Notes: generated from the sequence alone by a model not told the origin. A stretch of DNA of 64,000 nucleotides from a virus (IMGVR_UViG_3300008255_000097:123225-187224); one strand, 5' to 3'; shown: positions 44,265 to 60,105, counted from the first letter of the stretch. Program-made: numbers and translations.

Positions 44265-44268
44265 AATA

Positions 44269-44345
44269 TGGCGTCCTTGGAGGGACTCTAACCCCCACTA
44301 TCGACGTTAGAACCGTCGTGCACTATACAATTATACTACAAGGAC
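44269..44345 (-). tRNA. tRNA-Arg(TCT) second copy
   Basis: Anticodon arm CGACG GTTCTAA CGTCG; unusual T-loop TTAGAGT; CCA encoded. Confidence 0.6.
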
Positions 44346-45042
44346 ATAAATTAATACACAGAACATTATCTGTAATAGAGTTAATTTCGTAAAAATACAT
44401 ATTATGTGGTCTTTCATCTCTATACCAGGGATCCAAACCGTTTTCAGTACTTTCTGGATCATAGCACATCTTTAACATAAAGATAAAATTATCAAACGTA
44501 AAAATAGTATATACTTCAAAATATCCAGTATCCACAGTTGATTCTTTTAATAAACTAATATCAATCTTATTAAGAATGTCAACTGCTACTTCTTCAAGAC
44601 AGAAATCGATAGTTTTTGAGCAGTTCGATGTAATTCGTTCCTGTCTATGTTCAAATCTATATGAGAGTCGATCTAGGAAATACTTAATGGATTTAAAAAA
44701 CTCAACATCAATCATATCCTTAATCATTGCGTCATTTTGTGTCGTAGAAACTTCTATCACATTTATACCATCTTTAGTTATCTCATATCCATACCGAGTT
44801 TCTTCATGAATAGCAAGTAATCGATCAGCGCATCTCTCATCTAAAAGCTCCTGTGCATATTGCTTTACATAATTAGATCTAAACGTACCGGAATGTTTAT
44901 TAGTATGTTGTTCAGCTCTTTCACATAGTCGCGCATGCTTAGTTAGATATTGAAAATGCTTATATGGATATTGAATTACCTTATTCATGCCACATATTAT
45001 ATAGGAAACATGAATAAGATAAAGCAAAATTTTGGTTAACAT
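44323..45042 (-). CDS. hypothetical protein
   Basis: 239-aa ORF whose 3' end overlaps the tRNA by about 20 nt. Confidence 0.4.
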   Translation of the reverse strand: MLTKILLYLIHVSYIICGMNKVIQYPYKHFQYLTKHARLCERAEQHTNKHSGTFRSNYVKQYAQELLDERCADRLLAIHEETRYGYEITKDGINVIEVSTTQNDAMIKDMIDVEFFKSIKYFLDRLSYRFEHRQERITSNCSKTIDFCLEEVAVDILNKIDISLLKESTVDTGYFEVYTIFTFDNFIFMLKMCYDPESTENGLDPWYRDERPHNMYFYEINSITDNVLCINLCPCSIIV

Positions 45043-45140
45043 GCTATTTCACGCAGAGCGTGAAACGATGCTCCTTCCACTCTTACATACTTCTAATGGT
45101 AGATGAGCCATATATCAGCCACTAATAACTGTGACAAGAT

Positions 45141-45215
45141 TGGTCCCGTAGAGTGGAGTCGAACCACTTATACACTGCGTATGAAGCAGCTGCCTAGCCG
45201 GTTAGCTTCTACGGG
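45141..45215 (-). tRNA. tRNA-Met/Ile(CAT)
   Basis: Anticodon loop TTCATAC, T-arm AGTGGTTCGACTCCACT, CCA encoded. Confidence 0.7.
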
Positions 45216-45423
45216 GTCATGAGATGCACAGTTTTCTCATCCTTAATATCTAGTTGTGAGCTAAACTTTGGGGAGTAGTGAGGATATAAATTCAGGAACA
45301 ACCCTCTGTTTATAGCCCACACGACACGACCACTTTACTTCGCTGCATTGAATAGTTTGTTATAACATTTTGCTACTATTCACCACAGTTTATGTAGCAT
45401 CTCATCTCTTAGTCGCTTCGAGT

Positions 45424-45497
45424 TGGAACGGGTAACGGGGATCGAACCCGTATCATTAGCATGGCAAGCTAACACTCTACCATTGAGATATACCCGC
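45424..45497 (-). tRNA. tRNA-Gly(GCC)
   Basis: Anticodon loop TTGCCAT, T-arm ACGGGTTCGATCCCCGT, CCA encoded. Confidence 0.75.
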
Positions 45498-45502
45498 AAA
45501 AT

Positions 45503-45576
45503 TGGTTGGCTCGGAAAGATTCGAACTTCCGCAAACTGAGTCAGAGTCAGTTGTGCTACCATTACACCACAAGCCA
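45503..45576 (-). tRNA. tRNA-Gln(CTG)
   Basis: Anticodon loop CTCTGAC, U1-A72, CCA encoded. Confidence 0.7.
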
Positions 45577-45577
45577 T

Positions 45578-46042
45578 TTAAAAAATTGTTGAATGTAGCC
45601 CGATATCATTGTGTCGTCTAGTGAGTGTATCCAATAACTTCTCTACTGTCGGTCCTTCATGATAACCTGTGCTACTGTTAAACTCAAATCCCCAGCCTTT
45701 TACTAAAGAATCAAACGCTTTATCAATTCTCATAAATCGTTCAACATCAATATCATTTAATAAAACACTACCGTTGCGCCTTATAAGAATCTTATCACTC
45801 CAGTTAGGTAATATTATAGAAGCTATTACCCCATTAGTATCCTTCTTTTGTGCTCGTATTCCTTTTGGTGTGTATAATATTTCTAGTATGTTAGAACCTG
45901 CATCAGCTCTGGTTTCCTTCTCTCTAGTTATTTTACCAGGAGTTGCTACTCCCCAAATACGTTCAATACGATCTGCCATGAAATCAAACAACGTGAATAA
46001 ATCACTTTGATTAGTCTCAAAATATAGATTAAACGAGTTCAT
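45578..46042 (-). CDS. hypothetical protein
   Basis: 154-aa ORF. Confidence 0.4.
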   Translation of the reverse strand: MNSFNLYFETNQSDLFTLFDFMADRIERIWGVATPGKITREKETRADAGSNILEILYTPKGIRAQKKDTNGVIASIILPNWSDKILIRRNGSVLLNDIDVERFMRIDKAFDSLVKGWGFEFNSSTGYHEGPTVEKLLDTLTRRHNDIGLHSTIF

Positions 46043-46095
46043 ATAGATATTTATACACTTATGATATATTCCTAAGGAGACCCTGAATAAAAAAT

Positions 46096-46842
46096 ATGCT
46101 GTCTCCTATAAATATTTATATGAAAACAATTTTGGATTCTATAGTTAACATTGATCAGTTTCATTCTGCAAAATATGATGACATTGTTGAAGTCGTCTGT
46201 GCACAATGCTCGCAAACATATAAAAGAAAAAAACGAGATATTAAGGCATATCAACGAAGAAATTTATCTGCAAGTGTATGCAAAAAATGTCAAAATGCTA
46301 ATCAAAAAACCGGCTCAAAAGTACAATGCCCAGAATGTGGAAAGTCTAGCTACAAACCGGTAGAGAAGATATCAAAAGGTTACATATTTTGTAATGCTAC
46401 TTGCTCTACCACATACAATAATAAACATAAAGATTACGGATATAGACGCTCAAAACTTGAAAAATGGATAGAAGATCGGTTAATACAGGACTTTCCAATA
46501 CTTGATATTCATTTTAACTCTAAACAAGCAATCGAAAGTGAACTTGATATTTACATTCCTGCTCTCCGTTTAGGTATTGAATTGAATGGTATCTTTCATT
46601 ATGAGCCTATTTACTCACCGAATCAATTTAAACGAATTCAAAATAATGATCAACAAAAAATTATTGAATGCTATAAACGTGGAATTGAGCTCTGTGTTAT
46701 TGATACTTCAACACAAAAATACTTCTCTGATAAAACATCAGAAAAATATTATGCCATAGTCACTAATATAATTAATCGCTGTTTGAAAAGATTGGAGCAG
46801 ACAGAGGGAATCGAACCCCCGACAGGCTTATCACCTGCTTAA
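46096..46842 (+). CDS. Vsr/DUF559-like PD-(D/E)xK endonuclease with N-terminal zinc fingers (homing-endonuclease-like)
   Basis: C-terminal LDIYIPALRLGIELNGIFHY...GIELCVID fits the DUF559 core (D...IExDG.H); CxxC pairs at the N-terminus; lone plus-strand gene in the tRNA array. Confidence 0.5.
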   Translation: MLSPINIYMKTILDSIVNIDQFHSAKYDDIVEVVCAQCSQTYKRKKRDIKAYQRRNLSASVCKKCQNANQKTGSKVQCPECGKSSYKPVEKISKGYIFCNATCSTTYNNKHKDYGYRRSKLEKWIEDRLIQDFPILDIHFNSKQAIESELDIYIPALRLGIELNGIFHYEPIYSPNQFKRIQNNDQQKIIECYKRGIELCVIDTSTQKYFSDKTSEKYYAIVTNIINRCLKRLEQTEGIEPPTGLSPA

Positions 46843-46885
46843 CCGGATTTGCAGTCCGGCGCCTTAGCCACTCGGCCATATCTGC
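46793..46885 (-). tRNA. class II-type tRNA with GCA anticodon (possible tRNA-Cys on a long-variable-arm scaffold)
   Basis: Anticodon arm CCGGA CTGCAAA TCCGG, 22-nt variable arm, T-arm GGGGGTTCGATTCCCTC, discriminator U73, CCA encoded. Confidence 0.5.
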
Positions 46886-46930
46886 TATTTATTTTTATCA
46901 TCGCCTAACCACTCGGCCACGGGGTCATGT

Positions 46931-47004
46931 TGGAGCCACCTACCAGTATCGAACTGGTATTTGCTGCATACCAAGCAGCTGTTCTACCTTTGAACTAAAG
47001 TGGC
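46931..47004 (-). tRNA. tRNA-Thr(GGT)
   Basis: Anticodon loop TTGGTAT, T-arm ACCAGTTCGATACTGGT, CCA encoded. Confidence 0.75.
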
Positions 47005-47008
47005 ATTA

Positions 47009-47094
47009 TGGTACGGGAGGAGGGACTTGAACCCTCATGCACCATTACTCTAATTATAACCGCCCTGCTTATAAGACAGGTGAGATACTCCCGT
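47009..47094 (-). tRNA. atypical tRNA-like gene (86 nt; anticodon arm CCTGT CTTATAA GCAGG gives TAT; D-arm not resolved)
   Basis: Clear T-arm GAGGGTTCAAGTCCCTC, acceptor ACGGGAG/CTCCCGT and CCA; internal fold is ambiguous. Confidence 0.35.
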
Positions 47095-47110
47095 ATACTA
47101 TTAATATTTA

Positions 47111-47785
47111 TTATCCTATAGTAACTTGATTATTAAAAGCATCTGCTGTAACAGGAAAAAGTTCTTTCATAATTTTAAACATTGCAATAGCATATTGTCT
47201 AATTTCCCATTGGGCATGCTCATCCATACGCAACCGTAAAAAATGCATTAGATTATGGATATCACAATTCACATACACTTCTGTATACAAATTAACAGGT
47301 AGAACCATTCTTGCCATTTCTCTTGCAACATTTTTAGATAACAAATCTTGGTAAAATTTGTATGACTCTCTACAGTGAGTCACCAGATGATCATTCAACA
47401 AATATTGTGTCAATTCTGAACTCTCAACACCGCCTTGCTTATTCTTTGTATCCTGCACTCTCCATCCATCAGGAATATAAAATTCATCTTTCATTTCTGT
47501 GTATCGTGCAGATTGCTCATTAAGACGGAAAGTACGATGGCGAACAAATTGTCTCATAACAAAGATTGGCATCTTTATATTGTATGTTATATTAACCGCT
47601 TCAAATGGGGAAGTATGTCTGTTCATATACAGATATTTCAACAGTTTCATATCCTGCTCTTCACCTTTTGATGGTGCATCATAGCAAATTCGTGCTGTCT
47701 CAACAATTCGTTGATCATTACCTAAATGGTCTATGTATCGCACAAACCCTTTATCCAAAACATCAATCGTAAACCCTTTATCCAT
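47111..47785 (-). CDS. thyX: flavin-dependent thymidylate synthase ThyX
   Basis: ThyX signature RHRTFRLNEQSARY (RHR...S.RY). Confidence 0.8.
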   Translation of the reverse strand: MDKGFTIDVLDKGFVRYIDHLGNDQRIVETARICYDAPSKGEEQDMKLLKYLYMNRHTSPFEAVNITYNIKMPIFVMRQFVRHRTFRLNEQSARYTEMKDEFYIPDGWRVQDTKNKQGGVESSELTQYLLNDHLVTHCRESYKFYQDLLSKNVAREMARMVLPVNLYTEVYVNCDIHNLMHFLRLRMDEHAQWEIRQYAIAMFKIMKELFPVTADAFNNQVTIG

Positions 47786-47803
47786 ATTGTTAAACTTCCT
47801 TAC

Positions 47804-47877
47804 TGGCTCCTAGACCTGGGCTCGAACCAGGAAAAACAGATTAACAGTCTGCTGTGATACCATTTCACCATCTAGGA
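47804..47877 (-). tRNA. tRNA-Asn(GTT)
   Basis: Anticodon loop CTGTTAA, T-arm CCTGGTTCGAGCCCAGG, CCA encoded. Confidence 0.7.
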
Positions 47878-47945
47878 TTCATCTTCACAATTATCAAATG
47901 GGGCCGCTTTTAAGGATTTTCACCTAAGGTCTATCGGCCGGTGAC

Positions 47946-48266
47946 CTATATCTTATCGACACCTGTTTTTTGCAGAAACTCAACAAATTTCTTGCAATCT
48001 TCTCTTCTAAGCTCCCAGCAATCCCAATGACCATATCTACATTGATAGCCGAATATGTATTTAATAGCTACCCAAATACGTTTAAATATATTTCTCCATT
48101 GAACAAGCTGAACTTCGAGATACAGACCTGCATCATCAAAATCTACTATTCCATCCTCATCTGCAAAATACACAAACCGTATAGTGTGATCCGAGCTTGC
48201 ACAAATACAATCAAAATACTCAGTCTTTAGCTGGCTCTGGTAACTGTTCTTCTTTGACTTTTTCAT
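47946..48266 (-). CDS. hypothetical protein
   Basis: 106-aa ORF. Confidence 0.35.
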   Translation of the reverse strand: MKKSKKNSYQSQLKTEYFDCICASSDHTIRFVYFADEDGIVDFDDAGLYLEVQLVQWRNIFKRIWVAIKYIFGYQCRYGHWDCWELRREDCKKFVEFLQKTGVDKI

Positions 48267-48414
48267 ACGGTGGTGGTCCTATTTTAACGAGATGATTTAT
48301 ATCTATACAAACTTTCTGTTGTTGTCTAATAGACTGAGCTTGTGCCATCATTCTTCTTAATTCTTCTAAAGGTATCTGTTGCATGTTATGTCCATAGAGC
48401 ACGACGAATATCAA
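48220..48414 (-). CDS. hypothetical small protein
   Basis: 64-aa ORF bridging two larger ORFs. Confidence 0.25.
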   Translation of the reverse strand: MIFVVLYGHNMQQIPLEELRRMMAQAQSIRQQQKVCIDINHLVKIGPPPYEKVKEEQLPEPAKD

Positions 48415-49012
48415 TAAGTCGTTTTAGATATTCTTGTTCTTCGTCATGTAATTTTTCTTCAAGTATATGAAGATCATCAAACATTTTCTTTACTTCAGGT
48501 GTGTCATTTGAGTTTAAACGTTCAAGCCAATTGTCTCCGCATCCTTCAAATTTCGCATCATGCCATTCTGTGAGCTTATCACTGATTTCCTGCTCACGGG
48601 TTGGATAATTTTTCCACCAATCATAAATTGCGTGAATCTCCTTAGCTACGTGTGCATGTTCAGGGTCGCTATCCCAAGCAATAACCTCGAAACACTTTTC
48701 CTTTTCTACAAAATCAACTAAAAGATTCATCATACCATAAAGAATGAGTTCAACCTTATCACACCACTGTCCTTTATTAAGACCGGTTGGTATTAAGTCA
48801 TACCGACGAAGGAGAAAATTACGAATCCAGTAATAGATATCTTTTGGTTTTGACCAACAGTAGTATGTAATCTCAAACCACATATCTTCAAGGATTGTAA
48901 CAACTCTTGACGGTTTCTTCTTTGTAATAGATTCAATGCTCTTTGTTAATTGTTTGAAATCTTTCATATATACCTCACTAAATGGAGCCACCAGACGGTC
49001 TCGAACCGACAA
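48386..49012 (-). CDS. hypothetical protein
   Basis: 208-aa ORF. Confidence 0.4.
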   Translation of the reverse strand: MSVRDRLVAPFSEVYMKDFKQLTKSIESITKKKPSRVVTILEDMWFEITYYCWSKPKDIYYWIRNFLLRRYDLIPTGLNKGQWCDKVELILYGMMNLLVDFVEKEKCFEVIAWDSDPEHAHVAKEIHAIYDWWKNYPTREQEISDKLTEWHDAKFEGCGDNWLERLNSNDTPEVKKMFDDLHILEEKLHDEEQEYLKRLIDIRRALWT

Positions 49013-49058
49013 CCTGCTGATTACAAATCAGCTGCTCTACCAACTGAGCTATAGTGGC
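48983..49058 (-). tRNA. tRNA-Thr(TGT)
   Basis: Anticodon loop TTTGTAA; T-loop TTCGAGA; CCA encoded. Confidence 0.7.
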
Positions 49059-49062
49059 ATAT

Positions 49063-49137
49063 TGGAGCCGCCAGCCCCACTCGAAGAGGCTTTTCCTGGG
49101 TACAGGCCAGGCGCATCACCGTATATGCTTTGGCGGC
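49063..49137 (-). tRNA. tRNA-like gene with non-canonical anticodon loop (CCTGTAC, C33) and A8; possible pseudogene
   Basis: Good acceptor (GCCGCCA), T-arm and D-arm, but U33 and U8 are missing. Confidence 0.4.
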
Positions 49138-49186
49138 AAGATGAATAAAGAAAATTTAGTAACAGTGTTTTTTGAAGATAAAGTTC

Positions 49187-49214
49187 GAAGTAACCGCTTC
49201 TATCACTTTTATTC
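49187..49214 (+). repeat. tRNA-trailer hairpin repeat copy a (GAAGTAAC...ATCACT...TATT)
   Basis: Member of an 8-copy family, each directly adjacent to the CCA end of a minus-strand tRNA; extended upstream similarity AGTGTTTTTTGAA..AAAGTTC is shared with copy f. Confidence 0.6.
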
Positions 49215-49289
49215 TGGAGCCACTGCAGGGATTCAAACCCTATTATCCGATTTACGAGACCGGCGCATCATCACTTATGCTTCAATGGC
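49215..49289 (-). tRNA. tRNA-Thr(CGT)
   Basis: Anticodon loop CTCGTAA, CCA encoded. Confidence 0.65.
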
Positions 49290-49362
49290 AAAAAAATGAA
49301 CCTCTATAAACTGCCTGTTTAATTACTCTCTTTAAACTACCTATTATTTTTATCTTGTCTTT

Positions 49363-49384
49363 TGGTGACTTAGTCACCTTTTTA
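49363..49384 (+). terminator. rho-independent terminator-like hairpin (plus-strand sense)
   Basis: GGTGAC TTA GTCACC followed by TTTTTATT. Confidence 0.4.
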
Positions 49385-49409
49385 TTAGATGTCTTTTTAG
49401 CTCTAGCAG

Positions 49410-49434
49410 TTTTTGTTTTTGTTTTTGTTTTTGT
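49410..49434. repeat. (TTTTTG)x4 tandem repeat
   Basis: Direct hexamer repeat just downstream of the hairpin. Confidence 0.6.
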
Positions 49435-49453
49435 TTTTGCTTCTTTCATTTGA

Positions 49454-49526
49454 TGGAGCGGGTAAGGAGAATTGAACTCCTGTATTCAGATTGGAAGTCT
49501 GACGCACAACCATTATGCCATACCCG
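49454..49526 (-). tRNA. tRNA-Gly(TCC)
   Basis: Anticodon loop CTTCCAA, T-arm AGGAGTTCAATTCTCCT, CCA encoded. Confidence 0.75.
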
Positions 49527-49538
49527 CGTTACCAATAT

Positions 49539-50120
49539 TTATCTCAATCGTTGTATAATACTTTGTCGAACTCTACCCGGCATTCCATTGAGTTGTTTTA
49601 TTATTTTTAACACCTCCGGACTATCAATCAAATCCATTGCTTTCATTGAATCACAATAATCACCGACGTTCTTCGAATAATGTCGCATCAACTCTGCTGC
49701 TTTAAAAAACTCATCATCAATATTACAAGTATCTGAGACAATCTTCTCTACCTCTTTACCTGGACGGAAAAACTGTACTTCTGCGAATGCTGCTTTTTGT
49801 AGACTTTCATATTTTTCAGGGTTATTTTTCGCTAAATCAGAAATTCGAATTTTTTCTCTTAGCATTTCCGTGAACGGTTTATTTATATCCTTCTCAGGTT
49901 TTGTATCGATATCGACAACATTAAAGGTACATATAGCAAAGAGATTTTTATCTCTATGCTCTACTAAAAGATAACTATTTTCACAGTTGAATAGATATTC
50001 ATTATCTAATAGTTTCTCCACATTGGCCTGTGACGATTGAACAGCCTTCAATATTTGTTTTACAAACCAATCAATATACGTGGTTGGAATATTATCTATT
50101 TTTAAATCTTTGATTTCCAT
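49539..50120 (-). CDS. hypothetical protein
   Basis: 193-aa ORF between tRNA genes. Confidence 0.4.
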   Translation of the reverse strand: MEIKDLKIDNIPTTYIDWFVKQILKAVQSSQANVEKLLDNEYLFNCENSYLLVEHRDKNLFAICTFNVVDIDTKPEKDINKPFTEMLREKIRISDLAKNNPEKYESLQKAAFAEVQFFRPGKEVEKIVSDTCNIDDEFFKAAELMRHYSKNVGDYCDSMKAMDLIDSPEVLKIIKQLNGMPGRVRQSIIQRLR

Positions 50121-50188
50121 ATTATCTCCTGTCCTTAATTATACTCTATTGCAAATATAAATCAACACATGCCTTAATATTTATTTTT

Positions 50189-50262
50189 TGGTTGGATCGG
50201 GAAGATTTGAACTTCCACCAAGAGAGTCAAAGTCTCTTGTGCTGCCATTACACTACGACCCA
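50189..50262 (-). tRNA. tRNA-Gln(TTG)
   Basis: Anticodon loop CTTTGAC, U1-A72, CCA encoded. Confidence 0.7.
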
Positions 50263-50271
50263 TTTTATAGA

Positions 50272-50348
50272 TGGTGTACCTGGAGGGACTCGAACCCCCA
50301 TTAGTCTTGGTCCGTAGCCAAGTGCCATATCCATTAGGCGACAGGTAC
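50272..50348 (-). tRNA. tRNA-Arg(ACG)
   Basis: Anticodon loop CTACGGA, CCA encoded. Confidence 0.75.
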
Positions 50349-50388
50349 ATATTGAGAGGAAAACAATGAGAGGGTATTTCAAATGTCC

Positions 50389-50424
50389 GAAGTAACTCTA
50401 CATCTCACTTCTCAAATAAATTAT
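50389..50424 (+). repeat. tRNA-trailer hairpin repeat copy b
   Basis: GAAGTAACTCTACATCTCACTTC...AATTATT immediately before the CCA of tRNA-Ile. Confidence 0.6.
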
Positions 50425-50500
50425 TGGTAGGCGACCAAGGATTTGAACCTTGTCGACGAGATCTTATCAGGATCTCCGGCATAACCAATGCCCGCCGCCT
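50425..50500 (-). tRNA. tRNA-Ile(GAT)
   Basis: Anticodon loop CTGATAA, T-arm CAAGGTTCAAATCCTTG, CCA encoded. Confidence 0.75.
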
Positions 50501-50505
50501 ATTAA

Positions 50506-50582
50506 TGGTAGCGGAAGCAGGACTCGAACCTACGTCTTCGGCTTATGAGACCGAGCTGGAACCACCTCCAGTCTATTCCGCA
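50506..50582 (-). tRNA. tRNA-Met(CAT), initiator-like (U1·U72 mismatch)
   Basis: Anticodon loop CTCATAA, U8 A9, unpaired 1:72, CCA encoded. Confidence 0.55.
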
Positions 50583-50583
50583 A

Positions 50584-51042
50584 CTATATTCTATAAACTT
50601 CTGCAAATCTACAATTTTGTTTCTTTAGCTTAGGAGGATCAACACGTAAATTTATACTCTTTTGCACAGTAAATCCGTCTTCTTGAACACAATCAACGAC
50701 AGGTATTAAATATCCTTTTTGTGTTTCATCACACCAAATCGCAATTAAATCAATTTCTTTTATGCTATACGTAAATACAGCACTTTTACTTGTAGTGCCG
50801 ACTGTTCTTCTTGTATAAGCACGTACTGCGCCATTCTTTATAAGTCCGTTTTTTATCTGTACTCTTTCAAATCCATTACCGCGGTTGATTACTATATCAT
50901 AGAGTTGATTATCTCCAAAAGGCTGCAAAACAATCCAATTTTTATTTATACATTTCGCAATAATATTTATTTCTGCTTTATCCCCTATATTCTTAGTATT
51001 CATATTCAAAAATGGCTCAAGGGAGTTTAGGACCTTACCCAA
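50584..51042 (-). CDS. YraN/Hjc-like PD-(D/E)xK nuclease (paralog 1)
   Basis: GDKAEINIIAKCI...YDIVINRGNGFERVQIKNG matches the YraN pattern G..E...L...G...DLI...vEVK. Confidence 0.5.
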   Translation of the reverse strand: MGKVLNSLEPFLNMNTKNIGDKAEINIIAKCINKNWIVLQPFGDNQLYDIVINRGNGFERVQIKNGLIKNGAVRAYTRRTVGTTSKSAVFTYSIKEIDLIAIWCDETQKGYLIPVVDCVQEDGFTVQKSINLRVDPPKLKKQNCRFAEVYRI

Positions 51043-51105
51043 GAACTGTCCAAGGCGTTAGCTCTCGCCAACCTCCACCATCTAGTTTACTAACTAGCAA
51101 AAATA

Positions 51106-51525
51106 CTAAATTTCAAAATCTTTTGCCCAGAGAATACTTGCTTTTTGGTTATTTTTTGGTGCTTGTACTCTTAAACACACATCAACTGTCCCTCTATACT
51201 CCTCTATACCTATTCTATATAACTTATTATTGTCTTGACAAAAAATAATAAAACTATCAATTTCTTTATCTGTATACTGTTGAAGTATTGTTGTATTATA
51301 TTTCCGTTTCTGAACCCGACATCTTACAATTCCATTTATTTCTCTACCAGTTTTTACTTGAACTCTTTCAAATCCATTACCGAAATCTACTAAAATATCA
51401 TATTTTTGTTCATCCAAATACGGTTTAGCAACATCATACCCTTTTTCGAGTAAATACACTGCTACTTTATATTCATTAACCATTCCACGGCGTTGATTAT
51501 CATGTCCCTTTTCAATCTCTGTCAT
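51106..51525 (-). CDS. YraN/Hjc-like PD-(D/E)xK nuclease (paralog 2)
   Basis: GMVNEYKVAVYLLEKGYDVA...YDILVDFGNGFERVQVKTG. Confidence 0.5.
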   Translation of the reverse strand: MTEIEKGHDNQRRGMVNEYKVAVYLLEKGYDVAKPYLDEQKYDILVDFGNGFERVQVKTGREINGIVRCRVQKRKYNTTILQQYTDKEIDSFIIFCQDNNKLYRIGIEEYRGTVDVCLRVQAPKNNQKASILWAKDFEI

Positions 51526-51585
51526 TTTATCTCCTATAAATATTTATAAGAGATCATCTGCTATTATAGCAGATATTCAAATTAC

Positions 51586-51661
51586 TGGTCGGAAATGTCG
51601 GATTTGAACCGCTCCCAGACGCCCCAAACGTCTTGTGCTACCAAGTTACACCACATTTCCG
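51586..51661 (-). tRNA. tRNA-Pro(TGG)
   Basis: Anticodon loop TTTGGGG, perfect acceptor CGGAAAT/ATTTCCG, CCA encoded. Confidence 0.65.
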
Positions 51662-51692
51662 AATATTGGAAGAAAAGCTAACAGAGGTTTTA

Positions 51693-51760
51693 ATTTCATA
51701 CTAGGAGTTGAACCTAGAATATGAACCTTTTAAGGGTTCTGCATTTTCCAATTTTGCTAT
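51693..51760 (-). tRNA. tRNA-like fragment/pseudogene with Leu(TAA)-type anticodon arm
   Basis: Clear T-arm CTAGGTTCAACTCCTAG and anticodon arm GAACC CTTAAAA GGTTC, but no 5' acceptor partner and no CCA. Confidence 0.3.
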
Positions 51761-51791
51761 ACGATGTATCTCTATTAATCACTATCCAAAC

Positions 51792-51866
51792 TGGTACACG
51801 CAGAAGGAATCGGACCTCCATCTCCAGTGTGTAAAACTGGGGTACTAACCATTGTACGATGCGTGC
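51792..51866 (-). tRNA. tRNA-Val(TAC)
   Basis: Anticodon loop TTTACAC, CCA encoded. Confidence 0.7.
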
Positions 51867-51912
51867 ATTAAAAGAGAAAATCGACATTGAGTGTGTTTTA
51901 ATTCCCATAATT

Positions 51913-51942
51913 GAAGTAACTCAACATCTCACTACTTTTATT
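51913..51942 (+). repeat. tRNA-trailer hairpin repeat copy c
   Basis: GAAGTAACTCAACATCTCACTACTTTTATT before the CCA of tRNA-Ala. Confidence 0.6.
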
Positions 51943-52017
51943 GGTGGACCCGACAGGAATTGAACCTGCATCTCCTCGGTGCAAGCGAGGTGCTAAACCA
52001 GTGTCAGCTACGAGCCC
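51942..52017 (-). tRNA. tRNA-Ala(TGC)
   Basis: Anticodon loop CTTGCAC, G3-U70 pair, T-arm GCAGGTTCAATTCCTGT, CCA encoded. Confidence 0.8.
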
Positions 52018-52282
52018 AGAATATTTAAGGATAAAGTTGGCAAAAGTGTTCAGTGTTTTACAACGAACTGTACGTTGTGCGGCTCGTTTTAAGTGTCTCC
52101 AGCTTCCACTTGATACATAGTATCAATTCATGTATTTTTCGAAGTATCTTTTCCCTCAATGCCTTAAACATAACATCATTATATATGCATAAAATATTTA
52201 TGCAAGATCTTTAAAAAATTAATAGAGAAAGTCAAGAAAAAGTGTTTTTCGCGTGCTAACATTACACTAACCCTCGATTAAT

Positions 52283-52310
52283 TGGTTGAGGGTGAAGGAA
52301 TTGAACCTCC
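52283..52310 (-). tRNA. tRNA 3' fragment (T-arm plus acceptor strand plus CCA only)
   Basis: TGG T TGAGGGT GAAGGAATTGAACCTCC, with no anticodon or D arms. Confidence 0.3.
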
Positions 52311-52328
52311 TCTTCGTCATTATGTATT

Positions 52329-52360
52329 GAAGTAACTCTTTCTTTCACTACTATTAAAAC
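52329..52360 (+). repeat. tRNA-trailer hairpin repeat copy d
   Basis: GAAGTAACTCTTTCTTTCACTACTATTAAAAC. Confidence 0.6.
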
Positions 52361-52459
52361 TGGTCGGGAAGGTGGGATTCGAACCCACGAAGCACACACG
52401 CTTAGTGCACTTGTCCGGTTCCAAGCCGGATGAGGAAAGCCAGACTCCTCCACTTCCCG
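52361..52459 (-). tRNA. class II-type tRNA with TGG anticodon (Ser-like scaffold)
   Basis: Anticodon arm TCCGG CTTGGAA CCGGA (E. coli tRNA-Ser(UGA) has CUUGAAA), about 25-nt variable arm, 5' CGGGAAG, T-arm GTGGGTTCGAATCCCAC, CCA encoded. Confidence 0.45.
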
Positions 52460-52792
52460 TAAATTGGCAGTGTGATTTGGTTATCATCATTGGATTTCAC
52501 GATGTTCTGTCTTTGATCTTCGTGTGAGACATAGGAGTCGAACCTAAGCACTCGGGCCCGTGAAAGGATGAGTGGCAACCAGCTTCTCCGATCAAATACA
52601 TCTATCAACTACTTCACCAAATACATCTACCGCATACCGGTAGCGTTCTTTTAACCAGATGGATTTCAATATTTTTTCCTACTTGATATTGCTTTCATTA
52701 TTCTAGAACTAATTACTCACCTCTCAACGTCTATCATCTGTTTTATCTTGCCATAAAGACAAGAGTTATGATTTGAACTATCACACGTAAAA

Positions 52793-52867
52793 TGGTACCC
52801 TCGAGGAGAATTGAACTCCCTTTTACAGATTGAAAGTCTATCGAATTAACCAATATTCGACGAGGGC
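52793..52867 (-). tRNA. tRNA-Glu(TTC)
   Basis: Anticodon loop CTTTCAA, CCA encoded. Confidence 0.75.
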
Positions 52868-52935
52868 AAAAATTATTAGAGAAAAGTTGGCGTGAGTGTA
52901 TACTGTGCTAGCCGCTACACTACATGCGGAATTAT

Positions 52936-52981
52936 TGGCCCGCATGCCGGGACTCGAACCCGGCCCAGTCAATTAACAGTT
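52936..52981 (-). tRNA. tRNA 3' fragment (anticodon arm with CTGTTAA loop, T-arm, acceptor strand, CCA)
   Basis: The 5' half is replaced by hairpin repeat copy e. Confidence 0.3.
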
Positions 52982-53002
52982 GAAGTAACTCGTACCATCA
53001 CT
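52982..53002 (+). repeat. tRNA-trailer hairpin repeat copy e
   Basis: GAAGTAACTCGTACCATCACTACTAATAAAT. Confidence 0.6.
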
Positions 53003-53124
53003 ACTAATAAATTGGTGGGGACGAAAGGATTTTCACCTTTAATAACCATATAGGCACCTGGTGTACTGTCAGGCTTGCTCATTAAGTTTCGATACTTAAT
53101 TGCGATGTCCGCTGCCGCGTTCCC
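53003..53124 (-). ncRNA. tRNA-like/structured RNA of unclear type (about 120 nt)
   Basis: CCA, GGGGACG acceptor-like strand and AAAGG ATTTTCA CCTTT T-arm-like hairpin, then an ATTAAG-TTTCGATA-CTTAAT hairpin; no canonical cloverleaf. Confidence 0.25.
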
Positions 53125-53227
53125 CTTTGATTGTTACACGAAGTGGATTCTCACCACACTTGTACCCGAAGCACCGTGCATCAATTATAACTGATTCTAC
53201 ACTATTCGTGAAATTTTTTCATGAAAA

Positions 53228-53303
53228 TGGTAGGTGTGGCGGGACTCGAACCCGCGACAGTCCGGTTAAAAGCCGGAGGCTCTATCAACTGAGCTACGCA
53301 TCC
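53228..53303 (-). tRNA. tRNA-Lys(TTT) second copy with two acceptor-stem mismatches (possible pseudogene)
   Basis: Anticodon loop CTTTTAA, D-arm TAGCTCAGTTGATAGAGC, T-arm GCGGGTTCGAGTCCCGC, A·C mismatches at 3:70 and 6:67. Confidence 0.5.
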
Positions 53304-53713
53304 AAACATCTATCAAAATCTAAATAATCCTCATACCAATTTGTTGTTTTTGTAATTCTTTCATTCTTTTCATATCGGATAACAATACACTTCTTCTTAC
53401 TAAAATCTTTCCAACTCAAATATATAACTCTTTCAATCTCTGGTATATAATATGCAAATACATCTAGATCTCTTTCAGTGTATGTAAATCTATAATTTGG
53501 ACCGCTCTTACTAAGCACACAATCTATTGAACCTCCTGTCTTATTATAACATTGATGGTTCTTCACTTGTATACGAATAGGTATACTACCAACTAAAGCA
53601 ATTAAATCAACTTTTGATAAATCACCTAGCTCTGTAAAAACAGCATATCCTTTCTTTAAAAGATCCAATGCAACAGCACACTCACCTATATTTCCTTTAA
53701 TTTTTGAATGCAT
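53294..53713 (-). CDS. YraN/Hjc-like PD-(D/E)xK nuclease (paralog 3)
   Basis: GNIGECAVALDLLKKGYAVFTELGDLSKVDLIALVGSIPIRIQVKN. Confidence 0.55.
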   Translation of the reverse strand: MHSKIKGNIGECAVALDLLKKGYAVFTELGDLSKVDLIALVGSIPIRIQVKNHQCYNKTGGSIDCVLSKSGPNYRFTYTERDLDVFAYYIPEIERVIYLSWKDFSKKKCIVIRYEKNERITKTTNWYEDYLDFDRCLDA

Positions 53714-53765
53714 ATTTAACCTCTTATCTGTATAGTATATTGCTATAATACACTCATATTAGAAA

Positions 53766-53842
53766 TGGCGGAGACGACGAGAATTGAACTCGCGCTTCTA
53801 GTTAGACAGACTAGTGTGCAGAAACCACTACACTACGCCTCC
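53766..53842 (-). tRNA. tRNA-Asp(GTC)
   Basis: Anticodon loop CTGTCTA, CCA encoded. Confidence 0.7.
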
Positions 53843-53854
53843 AGTAAAATCAAT

Positions 53855-53941
53855 TGGTGCACTTGGGGAGACTCGAACTCCCATTGACCGAAGTCATCTG
53901 GTCCTCAACCAGACGCGTTTGCCAAATTACGCCACAAGTGC
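53855..53941 (-). tRNA. tRNA-Leu(GAG)
   Basis: Class II: anticodon loop TTGAGGA, variable arm TGAC..GTCA, exact 7-bp acceptor, CCA encoded. Confidence 0.75.
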
Positions 53942-53988
53942 AATATATGAAGAAAATCGACTAAGAGTGTTTTTTGAATTAAAAGTTC

Positions 53989-54021
53989 GAAGTAACTCTT
54001 TATCTCACTATCATAAAAATT
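53989..54021 (+). repeat. tRNA-trailer hairpin repeat copy f (not followed by a tRNA)
   Basis: GAAGTAACTCTTTATCTCACTATCATAAAAATT with the same upstream extension as copy a. Confidence 0.55.
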
Positions 54022-54085
54022 GTTAGTAAAGAAAATCTAGAAGAGTGTAATCATCACCAAGGTCGGCCGAAGCTGTGGGGGTGTT

Positions 54086-54103
54086 GATAGGAGTCGAACC
54101 TAT
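54086..54103 (-). tRNA. isolated T-arm fragment
   Basis: GATAGGAGTCGAACCTAT between repeat copies f and g. Confidence 0.25.
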
Positions 54104-54110
54104 TATAACC

Positions 54111-54140
54111 GAAGTAACTCATTCTATCACTATTACTAAA
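54111..54140 (+). repeat. tRNA-trailer hairpin repeat copy g
   Basis: GAAGTAACTCATTCTATCACTATTACTAAA before the CCA of tRNA-Phe. Confidence 0.6.
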
Positions 54141-54215
54141 TGGTGGAAGCCCCGGGGATTGAACCCGATTGTCTGGATTTTCAGTCCAGCGCATTGACCA
54201 CAATTGCTTGACTTC
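54141..54215 (-). tRNA. tRNA-Phe(GAA)
   Basis: Anticodon loop CTGAAAA, CCA encoded. Confidence 0.75.
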
Positions 54216-54302
54216 CAAAATGGTGGACGTGAGTTTTACAAGGATGCGCCCTCCCCTTGCGTTAATTAACTTAGCATTTCTATTGATCAGATAAAAACAC
54301 TA

Positions 54303-54377
54303 TGGTGCCCCCACGGGTAATCGAAACCCGATTTCCAGATTGAGAGTCTGATGTCCTGACCGTTAGACGACAGGGCA
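54303..54377 (-). tRNA. tRNA-Glu(CTC)
   Basis: Anticodon loop CTCTCAA, D-arm GTCTAACGGTCAGGAC, T-arm CGGGTTTCGATTACCCG; acceptor stem pairs at only 5 of 7 positions. Confidence 0.5.
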
Positions 54378-54473
54378 TGAAAATTTAAGAGAAAATTTAA
54401 GAGAAAATCTGAATGAGAGCTTTTTATTGACGGGTGTGTTTACCAGTTTCACCACAAGGCAGCTATGAACCAC

Positions 54474-54512
54474 CAAGGTAGGACTCGAACCTACAATATC
54501 CTGTTTGTTTGA
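54474..54512 (-). tRNA. tRNA 3' fragment (T-arm plus acceptor strand) fused to repeat copy h
   Basis: CACCAAG GTAGGACTCGAACCTAC, with no CCA, followed by the repeat hairpin. Confidence 0.25.
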
Positions 54513-54538
54513 AGTAACTCATACATCACTACTTAAAT
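54513..54538 (+). repeat. tRNA-trailer hairpin repeat copy h
   Basis: GAAGTAACTCATACATCACTACTTAAATTA. Confidence 0.6.
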
Positions 54539-54539
54539 T

Positions 54540-54627
54540 ATGGCTGATAGGGCCAGACTTGAACTGGCAGGGATACAAAGTATCAAAGGTTAACAGCCTT
54601 CCCCGTTACCATTACGGTTTACCTATC
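54540..54627 (-). tRNA. class II-type tRNA with GTT anticodon (Tyr-like scaffold)
   Basis: Exact acceptor TGATAGG/CCTATCA, anticodon arm GAAGG CTGTTAA CCTTT, 16-nt variable hairpin GATAC..GTATC, CCA encoded. Confidence 0.5.
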
Positions 54628-54638
54628 ATTCGCGAAAA

Positions 54639-54719
54639 ATGGTGGGCAGAGGAGGACTCGAACCTCCGTGTGGTATGCCAGATTTACAGTCTGGTGCAGT
54701 CGCCGCTGTGCCATCCACC
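54639..54719 (-). tRNA. tRNA-Tyr(GTA)
   Basis: Anticodon loop CTGTAAA, 10-nt variable region, CCA encoded. Confidence 0.65.
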
Positions 54720-55016
54720 CAAAATAAATGAAGCCCCTACCTACGCTTACATTCGTGTTCGACTATGCCTTTAGGGCGCTGACCTCGGGTTACATCACGT
54801 ATAGATTTTTTACATCACCCCGATATTCTGCGACGGTCGTTTCGAACTTACCTTTTTTAATAGCGAATAAGACGCTCTATCGTTTCTATTTCAAAACAAT
54901 GCGCAGACTTATAGCGACGTCTTATGTTTTCAGGTACATAATCCAACAAACCTATTAAATTTTGATTTGACACGGTTAAATTAGCATTTCTACTAACGCC
55001 CGTTGCTATGTCAAAC

Positions 55017-55093
55017 TGGTGAACGTGGTGGGACTTGAACCCACATATTCTCGGTTAAGAGCCGAGCCTAAATTCCTTTCTAGTCACACGTTC
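55017..55093 (-). tRNA. tRNA-Lys(CTT)
   Basis: Anticodon loop CTCTTAA, exact acceptor GAACGTG/CACGTTC, CCA encoded. Confidence 0.7.
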
Positions 55094-55169
55094 AAAAAAT
55101 TGCGGCTTTTAAGGTATTGCAACCTAACGAGAACCGCGTCGTACTGATTTCACGGAAGGGCAATTTCCA

Positions 55170-55195
55170 ATAAAAAACCCATCCTGTTGGATGGG
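55170..55195 (-). terminator. rho-independent terminator (minus-strand sense)
   Basis: CCCATCC AACA GGATGGG followed by TTTTTTT on the minus strand. Confidence 0.6.
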
Positions 55196-55476
55196 CTAAT
55201 GTAAACTTGTTTGTATTGGCAGCTTACATCAGCACTTCCGTTCCCCCATATCTTCCGCTGTATACGGATGACGATTATTACCTGGGAGGCACTCGTACCC
55301 GCTAAAGCGTCTGATCTGTTTCAAAGTTATAAATTGTGTTTCCATATTTCATTAATTATTTATGCTCTTTGCCTCAATTTCCAGCATATTTCATAAATTT
55401 CTTTCTTTCAATACTCATATATTATAATAATCAGAATATAATGCAACATAAAAACTAAATTTTATGCATTAACGAA

Positions 55477-55824
55477 TCATATGCCTAGAGGATTAACTCT
55501 AGTTAGCTGCTTGAATGTCTCAGTCTTCTTACCTACATTCATTATAGCATGGCCCCAAAAAGCCTTGTTTATTGTACGAGGTTTCTCTGTTTTAATTTCG
55601 TAATAACATTTTGTAATAAACATTTGTTTTTTATTATGACCACCACCAATTTTTCGACGCCTATCTTCAGCCTCCCCTGGGATTTTATAGATAGTAGCAT
55701 GCTTACACTCAGATTGCCAGCCATTACATTCACGATAATAAAAACATCTCATAGTAGGCCCGTGGAAATATCCTAAAATATAACCGATTTTATACTGGTG
55801 TTTAGTTCTACGCTTTGCTTTCAT
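55477..55824 (-). CDS. hypothetical Cys-rich protein
   Basis: 115-aa ORF. Confidence 0.35.
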   Translation of the reverse strand: MKAKRRTKHQYKIGYILGYFHGPTMRCFYYRECNGWQSECKHATIYKIPGEAEDRRRKIGGGHNKKQMFITKCYYEIKTEKPRTINKAFWGHAIMNVGKKTETFKQLTRVNPLGI

Positions 55825-56159
55825 AATAATTCCGTAAAGTGTACTGCTATTAGATCTTCAAATGTGTCGTGAACTTCCCATATTTGTGCTTGAGGTAATG
55901 TTATTAGTTGTGTGTGTAATTCTTCATTATTTGTTGATTTACAATAAAACCTTGTATTCTTTAAAATAGTTGATCCAATATCTGTAATGTAGTAATCTAG
56001 TTCATATATTGGAGATCCTATATACCATAATTGTTTAACTGGTTTTTCATAACCAAATTGTGTAGTCATTCTTGTATTTATAGCCCATATCCACTTCCTC
56101 ACAGGAGTGTCACAAGATGCCGTTCGACTAATTGCTCTAGCGAGTTGTATGTTTTCCAT
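55821..56159 (-). CDS. hypothetical protein, member of ELL-tail paralog family
   Basis: C-terminus ...FEDLIAVHFTELL. Confidence 0.4.
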   Translation of the reverse strand: MENIQLARAISRTASCDTPVRKWIWAINTRMTTQFGYEKPVKQLWYIGSPIYELDYYITDIGSTILKNTRFYCKSTNNEELHTQLITLPQAQIWEVHDTFEDLIAVHFTELL

Positions 56160-56410
56160 TTGTACTCAGATTTTGTAAATTCAACAGAATCCCCTGGTTT
56201 TAAGTTTTTAGAGCTACGCAGAGTCGATCGTAAAATTTTACCTTCCACAATTGTAACCGTGTGTAAATTTCCCTCTCGGTTTCTATATGAATATCCACCA
56301 CTAACATGAACATCTCTTAGAATAGCAAACCCATTATCTTCGATACGAAGTTTGAATAGACCAAGAGATGATTTAATGTTACGTACCTTAGGTTGTATAA
56401 ATGCAAACAT
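56099..56410 (-). CDS. hypothetical protein, member of ELL-tail paralog family
   Basis: C-terminus ...LEQLVERHLVTLL. Confidence 0.4.
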   Translation of the reverse strand: MFAFIQPKVRNIKSSLGLFKLRIEDNGFAILRDVHVSGGYSYRNREGNLHTVTIVEGKILRSTLRSSKNLKPGDSVEFTKSEYKWKTYNSLEQLVERHLVTLL

Positions 56411-56437
56411 TAGTTGTTTTATATAGTGTTAATGTAA

Positions 56438-57274
56438 TTATTTACTGTTCCAATTTTTAGGGGGAGTAGCAAATTTACCAAATGCCGACGGTAATACTAC
56501 TTGCTCTTTTTTTATCATCGGTACTCCTAATGATTTCAACCCAGTTTGACTTGCATAATATATAACTAATTCTGCAACTTGATTTCCTATATTAAATTCA
56601 TCTTGCACTACATGTGAGCTTTTTTGTTGTCCCCACGTAGTACCAACACCGAAAGGATCTTCCTTTACTGATGTACAACACTTCACATCTCCGCTATATA
56701 AACTTCTAGACTTTGAATTTACTCCATAACAATCTAGCGTTCTATTAGAAGTACTGGAACAGTTAATATTATTTGATACCTGGCTATTATACAGTGTCCA
56801 AGGTGGTGTACCAGTTCCGGGATCTATACCTGGAACATATTTAATATCTTTTGCTGAATCACTCGTAATAGTCCAATAAGATGGTATACATATATCTACC
56901 TTCTCTTCAAAAATTAAAGCGCCAATTACCCCATTATTACCTGGTGCACCGGCTTCGTTGCAGTAGCTTCTATCTTTTCGACAGAATTTAAACGCACCAA
57001 CTGTCTCCATATCTTTACGAAAACCTTTAATCTCTAAAGTATCGTTAGCGTTTACTATGTATCCTGTATCGCCTGGTTTTGCAGGCTCTCCAGTAATAGC
57101 ATTAATACCATCTATAGAAGGAATCGCCAGTATCCGATTGTATGAGTGATTACGGATTTGTAAGGAATATTCAGTTCCAACTCGACTTTCAATAAAAGTA
57201 TTGTTGTCTTTGTGGAACTCTTGAACAGGATGGCCGTTGACGAGTATACGTAGCTCGTATTGATTTATTTTCAT
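56438..57274 (-). CDS. hypothetical protein
   Basis: 278-aa ORF. Confidence 0.4.
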   Translation of the reverse strand: MKINQYELRILVNGHPVQEFHKDNNTFIESRVGTEYSLQIRNHSYNRILAIPSIDGINAITGEPAKPGDTGYIVNANDTLEIKGFRKDMETVGAFKFCRKDRSYCNEAGAPGNNGVIGALIFEEKVDICIPSYWTITSDSAKDIKYVPGIDPGTGTPPWTLYNSQVSNNINCSSTSNRTLDCYGVNSKSRSLYSGDVKCCTSVKEDPFGVGTTWGQQKSSHVVQDEFNIGNQVAELVIYYASQTGLKSLGVPMIKKEQVVLPSAFGKFATPPKNWNSK

Positions 57275-57348
57275 TTTTCTCCTGCCTCATATGAGGACTT
57301 CATATCACATCTGTGACATATATATTTATATAGGCTGTAGAAAATAAA

Positions 57349-58542: not shown

Positions 58543-58559
58543 TTTACTACTCCTGATTG

Positions 58560-60100: not shown

Positions 60101-60105
60101 TCTTA

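Follow-up and report, generated by a model that had tools for sequence, protein, structure and literature searches.

Which amino acid is carried by a transfer RNA (tRNA) that joins the anticodon of one tRNA class to the variable arm of another? In textbooks, a long variable arm is restricted to the tRNAs for Leu, Ser, bacterial Tyr and selenocysteine (Sec). A 64,000-nt stretch of viral DNA (IMGVR_UViG_3300008255_000097:123225-187224; the whole stretch is called the window below) contains three tRNA genes with such an arm, the anticodons of which specify Cys (GCA), Pro (UGG) and Asn (GUU). They are designated here Cys*, Pro* and Asn*. The genes are real, their structure including the extra arm and their cognate identity nucleotides are conserved, and the architecture recurs in phages. 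As judged by comparison of their sequences, they probably encode cognately charged elongator tRNAs that decode their own codons and have undergone a selected expansion of the variable arm, for which the evasion of tRNA-targeting proteins is the preferred guess.

All three genes had been reported by the initial annotation and are called by ARAGORN on the minus strand, as tRNA-Cys(gca) of 93 nt, tRNA-Pro(tgg) of 99 nt and tRNA-Asn(gtt) of 88 nt (Table 1); the annotated positions hold, except that Asn* is shifted by one base (54541-54628 instead of 54540-54627). In local scans, each gene exceeds the Rfam gathering score of 29 for tRNAs, and a scan of the whole window missed Pro* and Asn*, apparently via its speed filters. 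Minimum free energy (MFE) folding yields a five-arm cloverleaf for each of them, consisting of the acceptor, D and anticodon arms, the variable-arm hairpin and the T arm, with a 7/5 branch of acceptor and T stems. An 8/4 or 9/3 fold, as found in allo-tRNAs, is ruled out for the three genes.

The arms were parsed by hand and subsequently checked by a script. The anticodon loops are CTGCAAA in Cys*, CTTGGAA in Pro* and CTGTTAA in Asn*, CCA is encoded in all three genes and, as the annotation had also stated, the variable arms are long and Cys* carries U73. Cys* contains a 7-bp acceptor stem (GCAGATA/TGTCTGC), G13·A22, G15 with C48, and a 5-bp anticodon stem. Pro* combines the acceptor stem CGGGAAG/CTTCCCG (C1:G72) and A73 with C48 and an 11-nt D loop (AGTCTGGCTTT), while Asn* has the acceptor stem TGATAGG/CCTATCA (U1:A72), G73, a 4-nt linker (TAAA) and a 4-bp D stem. 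The anticodon arm of Pro* had been placed one nucleotide away from that of tRNA-Ser(UGA); this is true of the 7-nt loop alone, and the stems are unrelated.

Related contigs were reached via homologues of the Ro protein of the window and of its 278-aa neighbour; the Ro protein is 86% identical in contig L030 and 63% identical in L028, a 250-kb contig. A 99-nt orthologue of Pro* is present in L030, L031 contains a 99-nt Pro* together with an 86-nt Asn gene, and L033 an 88-nt Asn gene as well as long His, Lys(CUU) and Glu(UUC) genes. Metagenomes were also scanned with a pattern composed of the D loop and the anticodon loop of Pro*, and 12 of the 19 matches were true tRNAs and seven were due to chance. 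The same pattern had no match in IMG/VR and, in 185,579 species genomes, two chance matches only and no tRNA.

Eight distinct 99-nt Pro* sequences align without gaps (alignment A1); those from L030 and L031 were found via neighbouring proteins and no tRNA pattern, whereas the pattern itself dictated the anticodon loop and a portion of the D loop in the other six. In a hand-drawn structure, 99.6% of the alignment cells pair, and both sides have changed in 20 of the 29 pairs, including 7/7 in the acceptor stem, 5/5 in the anticodon stem and 5/8 in the variable stem. None of 500 shuffles reaches any of these measures, and slid controls pair in 36-50% of the cells. A73 is found in all eight sequences and C1:G72 in seven; no variation occurs at G15, at C48 or in the T loop, the D loop reads AGYCTGG, as in tRNA-Pro, and the loop of the variable arm starts with UAAG in six. 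On the evidence of this alignment, Pro* is under purifying selection as an RNA. Proteins of the phages that share long-armed genes are only 39-86% identical, and this conservation contradicts the reading of these genes as pseudogenes.

The gene order Pro(CGG)-Pro(GGG)-Pro*(UGG) in L034 and L043 indicates that Pro* fills the UGG slot, and in L034 it is the only UGG isoacceptor. L036 encodes a counterpart with the same D arm, A37 loop, C1:G72 and A73 and an ordinary 5-nt variable loop, which suggests that the arm was added to a tRNA-Pro lineage. In a natural strain variant of the window phage (L019:5996-6094), the variable-arm loop of Pro* carries a single G-to-A change (TAAGCGT to TAAGCAT).

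The identity elements of bacterial tRNAs allow the putative amino acid to be narrowed down. The determinants are GCA and U73 for CysRS, and G35, G36, A73, G72 and G15:C48 for ProRS; AsnRS reads GUU and G73, and U1:A72 is required by GatCAB. Bacterial tRNA-Ser conserves G1:C72, G2:C71 and G73, tRNA-Leu requires A73 with A15:U48, and tRNA-Tyr requires A73 (Giege and Eriani 2023, PMC9976931). The acceptor ends are G1:C72, C2:G71 and U73 in Cys*, C1:G72, G2:C71 and A73 in Pro*, and U1:A72, G2:C71 and G73 in Asn*. The full bacterial Ser set is thus present in none of them; the phage's own Ser genes start with GGAAG and end with G73. Pro* contains G35, G36, A73, C1:G72 and G15:C48, Asn* contains GUU, G73 and U1:A72, and Cys* contains GCA and U73, although its variable region of 22 nt exceeds the class-I loop of 4-5 nt. 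The Leu discriminator A73 occurs in Pro* alone, but with invariant G15 and C48, while Cys* has U73 and Asn* G73. Similarly, in place of the A73, G1:C72 and GUA of tRNA-Tyr, Asn* carries G73, U1:A72 and GUU. What the genes do share with tRNA-Ser is the long variable arm itself, with regions of 22, 25 and 16 nt in Cys*, Pro* and Asn*, all of which form hairpins. As read from these nucleotides, the window genes do not represent Ser, Leu or Tyr scaffolds in which the anticodon has been exchanged, and their acceptor ends match their own anticodons.

The same architecture is widespread in IMG/VR. Patterns consisting of the Asn or Cys anticodon loop, a long gap and the T loop, with the acceptor end kept out of the pattern, led to 80 Asn loci (L055-L134) and 79 Cys loci (L176-L254), and the following counts, taken among the matches listed, are lower bounds. 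The long-armed Asn(GUU) genes number at least 38, all distinct; U1:A72 occurs in 33/38 and G73 in 37/38, and their 2:71 pair is split between C:G (20) and G:C (17). At least 21 distinct long-armed Cys(GCA) genes all have U73 (21/21). Hairpins of at least 3 bp are formed by the variable arms of 35 of 42 Asn and 19 of 24 Cys genes; 18/42 and 12/24, respectively, have GNRA loops, compared with a fraction of about 0.1-0.2 in shuffles. The variable arm is non-random. Among bystander tRNAs in the scanned loci, about 7-8% of the genes with class-I anticodons are at least 80 nt long, and they are found chiefly among Ile(UAU) (10/19), Thr(UGU) (11/28) and Asn(GUU) (5/21), with none among Ala, Gly and His. 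The long Ile(UAU) genes share an arm motif that resembles AAGCTCT-GAT.

A pooled recount over all loci gathered gives at least 41 long-armed Asn, 22 Cys and 12 Pro genes, the acceptor ends of which are like those of short Asn, Cys and Pro genes, respectively. Long Thr genes likewise have the G1:C72 and C2:G71 of short Thr genes (11/11). Pooled Ser genes carry G1:C72 in 52/55, G2:C71 in 50/55 and G73 in 48/55 cases, and A73 is present in 34/34 Tyr and 89/92 Leu genes. The class II arms of phages also differ in geometry: Ser arms consist of a 5-7 bp stem flanked by a single unpaired nucleotide on either side, and Tyr arms of a 3-4 bp stem with three unpaired nucleotides on its 3' side. The long Asn, Cys and Thr arms are mostly Tyr-like, while Pro* (single flanking nucleotides, 8 bp) and the Cys* of this clade are Ser-like.

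Several observations weigh against cognate use. The Ser-like geometry of Pro* and Cys*, with one unpaired nucleotide 3' of a 5-8 bp stem, is not shared by Asn*, but the G73 of Asn* is also the Ser discriminator, and a long arm together with G73 or U73 has been regarded as compatible with SerRS (Mukai et al., PMC5389517). All Pro* genes have A37 in place of G37, the site modified by TrmD to m1G37, and m1G37 contributes to prolylation in E. coli (PMC9976931); the conventional copies retain G37, and other phage Pro tRNAs show the same replacement. The window also contains conventional counterparts of Pro* and Asn*, a redundancy that suggests a role beyond simple decoding. Finally, Asn* reaches only 32.5 bits, a low score that is attributed to the odd TAAA linker between its acceptor and D stems.

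Some of these points favour natural missense tRNAs, as the initial annotation had proposed for Pro* and Asn*. The arm would then recruit SerRS (or LeuRS for Pro*, which bears A73, and TyrRS for Asn*) and place Ser, Leu or Tyr at Cys, Pro and Asn codons, as a form of deliberate mistranslation or recoding. SerRS depends on the variable arm and disregards the anticodon (PMC9976931), the arm geometry of Pro* and Cys* fits, Asn* combines G73 with G2:C71, and nev-tRNAs and allo-tRNAs provide precedents. Moreover, a full Ser- or Leu-type acceptor end is linked to a foreign anticodon in L003, L001 and the tRNA-Asn of Aeromonas phage 44RR2.8t. Missense use of the window genes is nevertheless unlikely. 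The complete bacterial Ser set is disrupted by C1:G72 and A73 in Pro*, by C2:G71 and U73 in Cys* and by U1:A72 in Asn*; Pro* has G15:C48 and not the A15:U48 of Leu, and Asn* G73 and not the A73 of Tyr or Leu. Within the families, the cognate determinants are kept while the 2:71 pair drifts. The proposal is therefore not supported for Pro*, in which C1:G72, A73, G15:C48 and a D loop of the tRNA-Pro type are conserved, nor for Asn*, which has U1:A72 with G73; across phage loci, long-armed Asn, Cys, Pro and Thr genes have the acceptor signatures of their short cognates and not those of Ser, Leu or Tyr. In addition, CCA is the commonest Pro codon of the phage (151/313), so that Ser-for-Pro replacement would harm its own proteins, and Cys* is the only Cys tRNA of an otherwise complete set. 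Mischarging by SerRS is still conceivable because of the Ser-like arm geometry of Pro* and Cys*.

Two phage genes stand apart: an 86-nt GCA tRNA with A73 lies between two Leu genes (L001:517-602), and an 88-nt tRNA with the loop CTTGGAA has the Ser-type ends GGAGG...G73 (L003:622-709). From their sequences, these two and the gene of Aeromonas phage 44RR2.8t have a stronger claim than the window genes to be true missense tRNAs.

For Cys*, position and gene content bear on its role. ARAGORN and Rfam detect conventional tRNA-Pro(UGG), tRNA-Asn(GUU) and tRNA-Tyr(GUA) genes in the window, in line with the annotation, and no conventional tRNA-Cys or second GCA tRNA. Cys* is the sole GCA tRNA of the window, and with it the tRNA set, otherwise complete, covers all 20 amino acids. 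Class-I phage tRNA-Cys genes have a matching D arm, and the order Ile(UAU)-Thr(GGU)-Cys is common to the window, L028 and L030. At the syntenic position, L028 has a 96-nt Cys gene with a different 8-bp variable stem, and L030 one of ordinary length (74 nt); both carry U73. The earlier suggestion that the GCA species is the phage tRNA-Cys on an unusual scaffold thus agrees with its being the only GCA tRNA, with its U73, its tRNA-Cys D arm and its syntenic position. An origin of Cys* from a Ser scaffold was considered and rejected, as its D arm is common to class-I phage tRNA-Cys genes.

The redundancy of Pro* and Asn* and the abnormal D-arm linker of Asn* would also be compatible with RNAs that act outside translation, i.e., decoys for toxins, regulators or ligands of the Ro60 and RNA-repair proteins of the phage, or with decaying pseudogenes. 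The Ro60/TROVE protein, two RNA ligases, a CCA-adding enzyme and a transfer-messenger RNA (tmRNA) form a toolkit that points to conflict over tRNAs, and irregular tRNAs that are charged yet untranslated were found by Mukai et al. Such a role is quite improbable here: covariation preserves the acceptor, the anticodon stem and the T arm, the anticodon loop is invariant and CCA is encoded, so that all decoding parts are maintained beyond what a decoy would need. Cys* and the Pro* of L034 are, furthermore, sole isoacceptors.

For the preferred reading of cognately charged elongators, Cys* would decode UGY, Pro* CCN (mainly CCA and CCG) and Asn* AAY codons. Charging would be performed by the host CysRS, ProRS and AsnRS (or the AspRS/GatCAB route); we infer cognate charging and use in translation from the intact state of the anticodon and the acceptor end, the two regions that these enzymes recognise. 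The stable hairpin to which the variable loop has expanded would be tolerated by the cognate synthetases, EF-Tu and the ribosome. The arm may change the shape of the tRNA core, such that proteins docking on the class-I body reject the phage copy while decoding is kept. Candidates for the proteins evaded in this way are anticodon nucleases of the host, further defence toxins that target tRNAs and some of the host's modification enzymes. This shielding role, by which recognition by proteins other than the cognate synthetase would be altered, is speculation; it fits the tRNA-repair and quality-control toolkit of the phage, the A37 at the TrmD site of Pro* and the known escape of phage tRNAs from nucleases by means of anticodon-loop changes (PMC10264068), a strategy that it would extend. 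More tentatively, class-I identity, a five-armed body and a GNRA-capped arm could define a distinct phage architecture that is concentrated in Ile-UAU, Thr-UGU, Asn-GUU, Cys-GCA and, in this clade, Pro-UGG tRNAs. The arm would then be a mark that distinguishes self from host, allowing escape from tRNA-cleaving defences or from the phage's own depletion of host tRNAs, and perhaps recognised by phage RNA-repair and quality-control proteins, while charging by the host is kept.

Selection could also have acted on the DNA, if an insert at the one site of a tRNA gene that tolerates insertions destroyed the target of a homing endonuclease and an RNA hairpin was its least harmful carrier. Three paralogous PD-(D/E)XK endonucleases (PF11645) are encoded inside the tRNA array of the window; this family includes I-Ssp6803I, a homing endonuclease that targets a tRNA gene, and SegB of phage T4 targets tRNA gene clusters. 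The long-armed tRNAs are, however, not adjacent to the endonuclease genes. The 8-bp stem and the UAAG-containing loop of Pro* are conserved in many orthologues and GNRA loops are strongly enriched, which argues for selection on the RNA and makes a DNA-level cause very improbable. The paralogues may drive the inheritance or diversification of the array.

Among known systems, the SelC* tRNA-Cys (Mukai et al. 2017, PMC5389517) resembles Cys* in its long arm, GCA anticodon, U73 and assumed charging with cysteine. It is a tRNA-Sec-like molecule of anaerobic bacteria with an 8/4 branch, a longer anticodon stem and a second CysRS, whereas Cys* is phage-encoded, with a 7/5 branch, an anticodon stem of 5 bp and the D arm of an ordinary tRNA-Cys. 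A long arm is also combined with non-Ser anticodons in allo-tRNAs (Mukai et al. 2017), which are found in metagenomes and phages; they differ in their 8/4 or 9/3 branch and their Ser identity (G73 or U73), and are missense or nonsense suppressors or inactive, in contrast to the 7/5 branch and cognate acceptor signatures of the window genes. The nev- and nov-tRNAs of nematodes and other eukaryotes (Hamashima et al., PMC3333845, PMC4300185) likewise pair a class II shape with anticodons foreign to that class, such as those for Gly and Ile, but their bodies are of the Leu or Ser type and undergo misacylation with Leu in vitro, whereas here an arm is added to a cognate class-I body. Like the window genes, escape tRNAs (van den Berg et al. 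2023, PMC10264068; PARIS and the T5 tRNA, PMC10802454) are structurally divergent phage isoacceptors that duplicate host or phage tRNAs, and A37 of Pro* is an anticodon-loop change of the same kind. In the published cases only the anticodon loop or stem is altered; an expanded variable arm has been neither proposed nor tested as a means of escape.

In nev-, nov- and allo-tRNAs, a foreign anticodon sits on a Ser or Leu body, and the pattern in the window is the reverse: a structured fifth arm, conserved by covariation and recurrent in phages, has been acquired by cognate Cys, Pro and Asn tRNAs and elsewhere by Thr, Ile, Met and other tRNAs. Cognate charging of these tRNAs would mean that a class II shape is accepted by CysRS, ProRS and AsnRS as well as by EF-Tu and the ribosome, a point of relevance to the design of orthogonal tRNAs. 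The arm also provides a concrete and testable candidate for the avoidance of tRNA-targeting immunity by phage tRNAs.

Cultured phages carry such genes as well, and the long-armed architecture has been in the databases for about twenty years under ordinary labels. BLAST identified 86-nt 'tRNA-Asn' annotations in the T4-like Aeromonas phages 44RR2.8t, 31, Aeh1 and PX29, and Brevundimonas phage Kikimora (ON529857) encodes an 87-nt 'tRNA-Cys' with the hairpin CGC-GAAA-GCG and U73 as well as an 89-nt 'tRNA-Met'. The genes of 44RR2.8t, 31, Aeh1 and Kikimora resemble those of the window in their length of 86-89 nt, their variable-arm mini-hairpin and, for Cys, their U73, although their sequences are unrelated and they are labelled as plain tRNA-Asn, tRNA-Cys and tRNA-Met. 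The Asn gene of 44RR2.8t (AY375531.1:69900-69985) has a 5-bp variable hairpin and, unlike Asn*, the Ser-like end G1:C72, G2:C71 and G73. BLAST of Asn* and Pro* against 50,697 phage records gave no useful match. The cultured carriers 44RR2.8t and Kikimora place the question within immediate experimental reach.

No description of phage class-I tRNAs with long arms was found in the open-access literature, and an earlier remark elsewhere is possible. The review 'Naturally occurring tRNAs with non-canonical structures' (PMC7609411) mentions neither phage nor virus, the identity landscape review (PMC9976931) describes no such phage tRNAs, and the PARIS preprint is silent on Asn, Thr and variable arms. 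The window genes belong to a widespread and apparently undescribed phage variant of class-I tRNAs.

Table 1. Positions of the tRNA genes and associated features in the window.
Feature	Position	Strand	Evidence and remarks
Cys*, tRNA-Cys(GCA), long variable arm, 93 nt	46793..46885	minus	ARAGORN; Rfam 60.6 bits (E 7e-13); MFE fold; synteny
Cys* variable region, 22 nt (TTAAGCAGGTGATAAGCCTGTC)	46821..46842	minus	fold, parse; 5-6 bp stem, one unpaired C before T stem
Pro*, tRNA-Pro(UGG), long variable arm, 99 nt	52361..52459	minus	ARAGORN; Rfam 48.1 bits (E 1e-9); alignment and covariation
Pro* variable region, 25 nt	52389..52413	minus	covariation, fold; 8-bp stem AAGTGCAC/GTGTGCTT, 7-nt loop TAAGCGT, one unpaired nucleotide each side
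Asn*, tRNA-Asn(GUU), long variable arm, 88 nt	54541..54628	minus	ARAGORN; Rfam 32.5 bits (E 2e-5); MFE fold; analogues in L031, L033 and IMG/VR
Asn* variable region, 16 nt	54569..54584	minus	fold, parse; hairpin GATAC-TTT-GTATC, then CCT
Conventional class-I tRNA-Pro(UGG), redundant partner of Pro*	51586..51661	minus	ARAGORN; loop TTTGGGG (G37)
Conventional class-I tRNA-Asn(GUU), redundant partner of Asn*	47804..47877	minus	ARAGORN; U1:A72, G73
Conventional tRNA-Tyr(GUA)	54640-54720	minus	ARAGORN/Rfam
Fourth aberrant tRNA, UAU anticodon, 86 nt	47009..47094	minus	Rfam 36.6 bits, missed by ARAGORN; loop CTTATAA, A73, CCA
tRNA-Thr(CGU)	49215-49289	minus	Rfam 46 bits, absent from ARAGORN calls
'tRNA-Leu(taa)', probable pseudogene	51692-51767	minus	ARAGORN
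'tRNA-Arg(tcg)', artefact	52343-52442	plus	ARAGORN
tRNA gene array, ~38 tRNA genes	44190..62363	minus	ARAGORN/Rfam; small open reading frames and three PD-(D/E)XK endonuclease genes interspersed
Three paralogous PD-(D/E)XK endonucleases inside array	50584-51042, 51106-51525, 53294-53713	minus (all)	Pfam PF11645
RNA repair and quality-control set (Rnl1-like ligase, CCA-adding enzyme, tmRNA with tag GDTELKMAA, second RNA ligase, Ro60/TROVE) and ribosomal protein S21 gene	14772-15887, 19802-21271, 37984-38355, 39544-40443, 41131-42639, 59035-59280		
Open reading frame of 248 aa	46096-46842	plus	overlaps Cys* on opposite strand; no Pfam match
Segment absent from L030, ~1.2 kb	45578-46792		

The window is AT-rich (G+C about 37%) and contains about 42 tRNA genes and the tmRNA, all on the minus strand (ARAGORN, Rfam). 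Its sequence recurs at an identity of at least 99.9% across many metagenome samples, and its Ro protein is present on a 236,389-bp contig, indicating that the window is a piece of a jumbo phage of about 236 kb. A near-identity DNA search of 50,697 deposited phage records found no close relative of the tRNA region, and searches for IMG/VR loci via ThyX or the PD-(D/E)XK proteins gave loci without tRNA arrays or no match. DNA ligase, NAMPT, an NMNAT-Nudix protein and ThyX are also encoded. Rfam detected no Y RNA near the Ro gene and no further tRNA-like genes in the gaps of the array, which encloses Cys*, Pro* and Asn*, the conventional Pro and Asn copies and the aberrant UAU gene. Compared with L030, where Gln(CUG) follows 28 nt after Cys, the window is longer by about 1.2 kb, and this extra segment includes the 248-aa open reading frame.

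The aberrant UAU gene has perfect acceptor and T arms, no normal D arm and a 26-nt region between its anticodon and T arms. In its orthologue in L030 (at about 3920-4003), TCTC...GAGT is changed to AACC...GGTT, and this covariation suggests that a 4-bp helix surrounds the anticodon arm, with a D-loop-like AATGGTG after it. At this position the Ile(UAU) gene of L028 is normal, and ATA, the codon decoded by UAU, accounts for 146 of the 533 Ile codons. The 'tRNA-Arg(tcg)' call of ARAGORN is a mirror image of Pro*. The 'tRNA-Leu(taa)' is of class-I size, with 5/7 acceptor positions paired and no CCA, and is probably a pseudogene. Class-I-sized UAA tRNAs with A73 were also seen in the IMG/VR loci L005 and L007, where the class rule is broken in the opposite direction.

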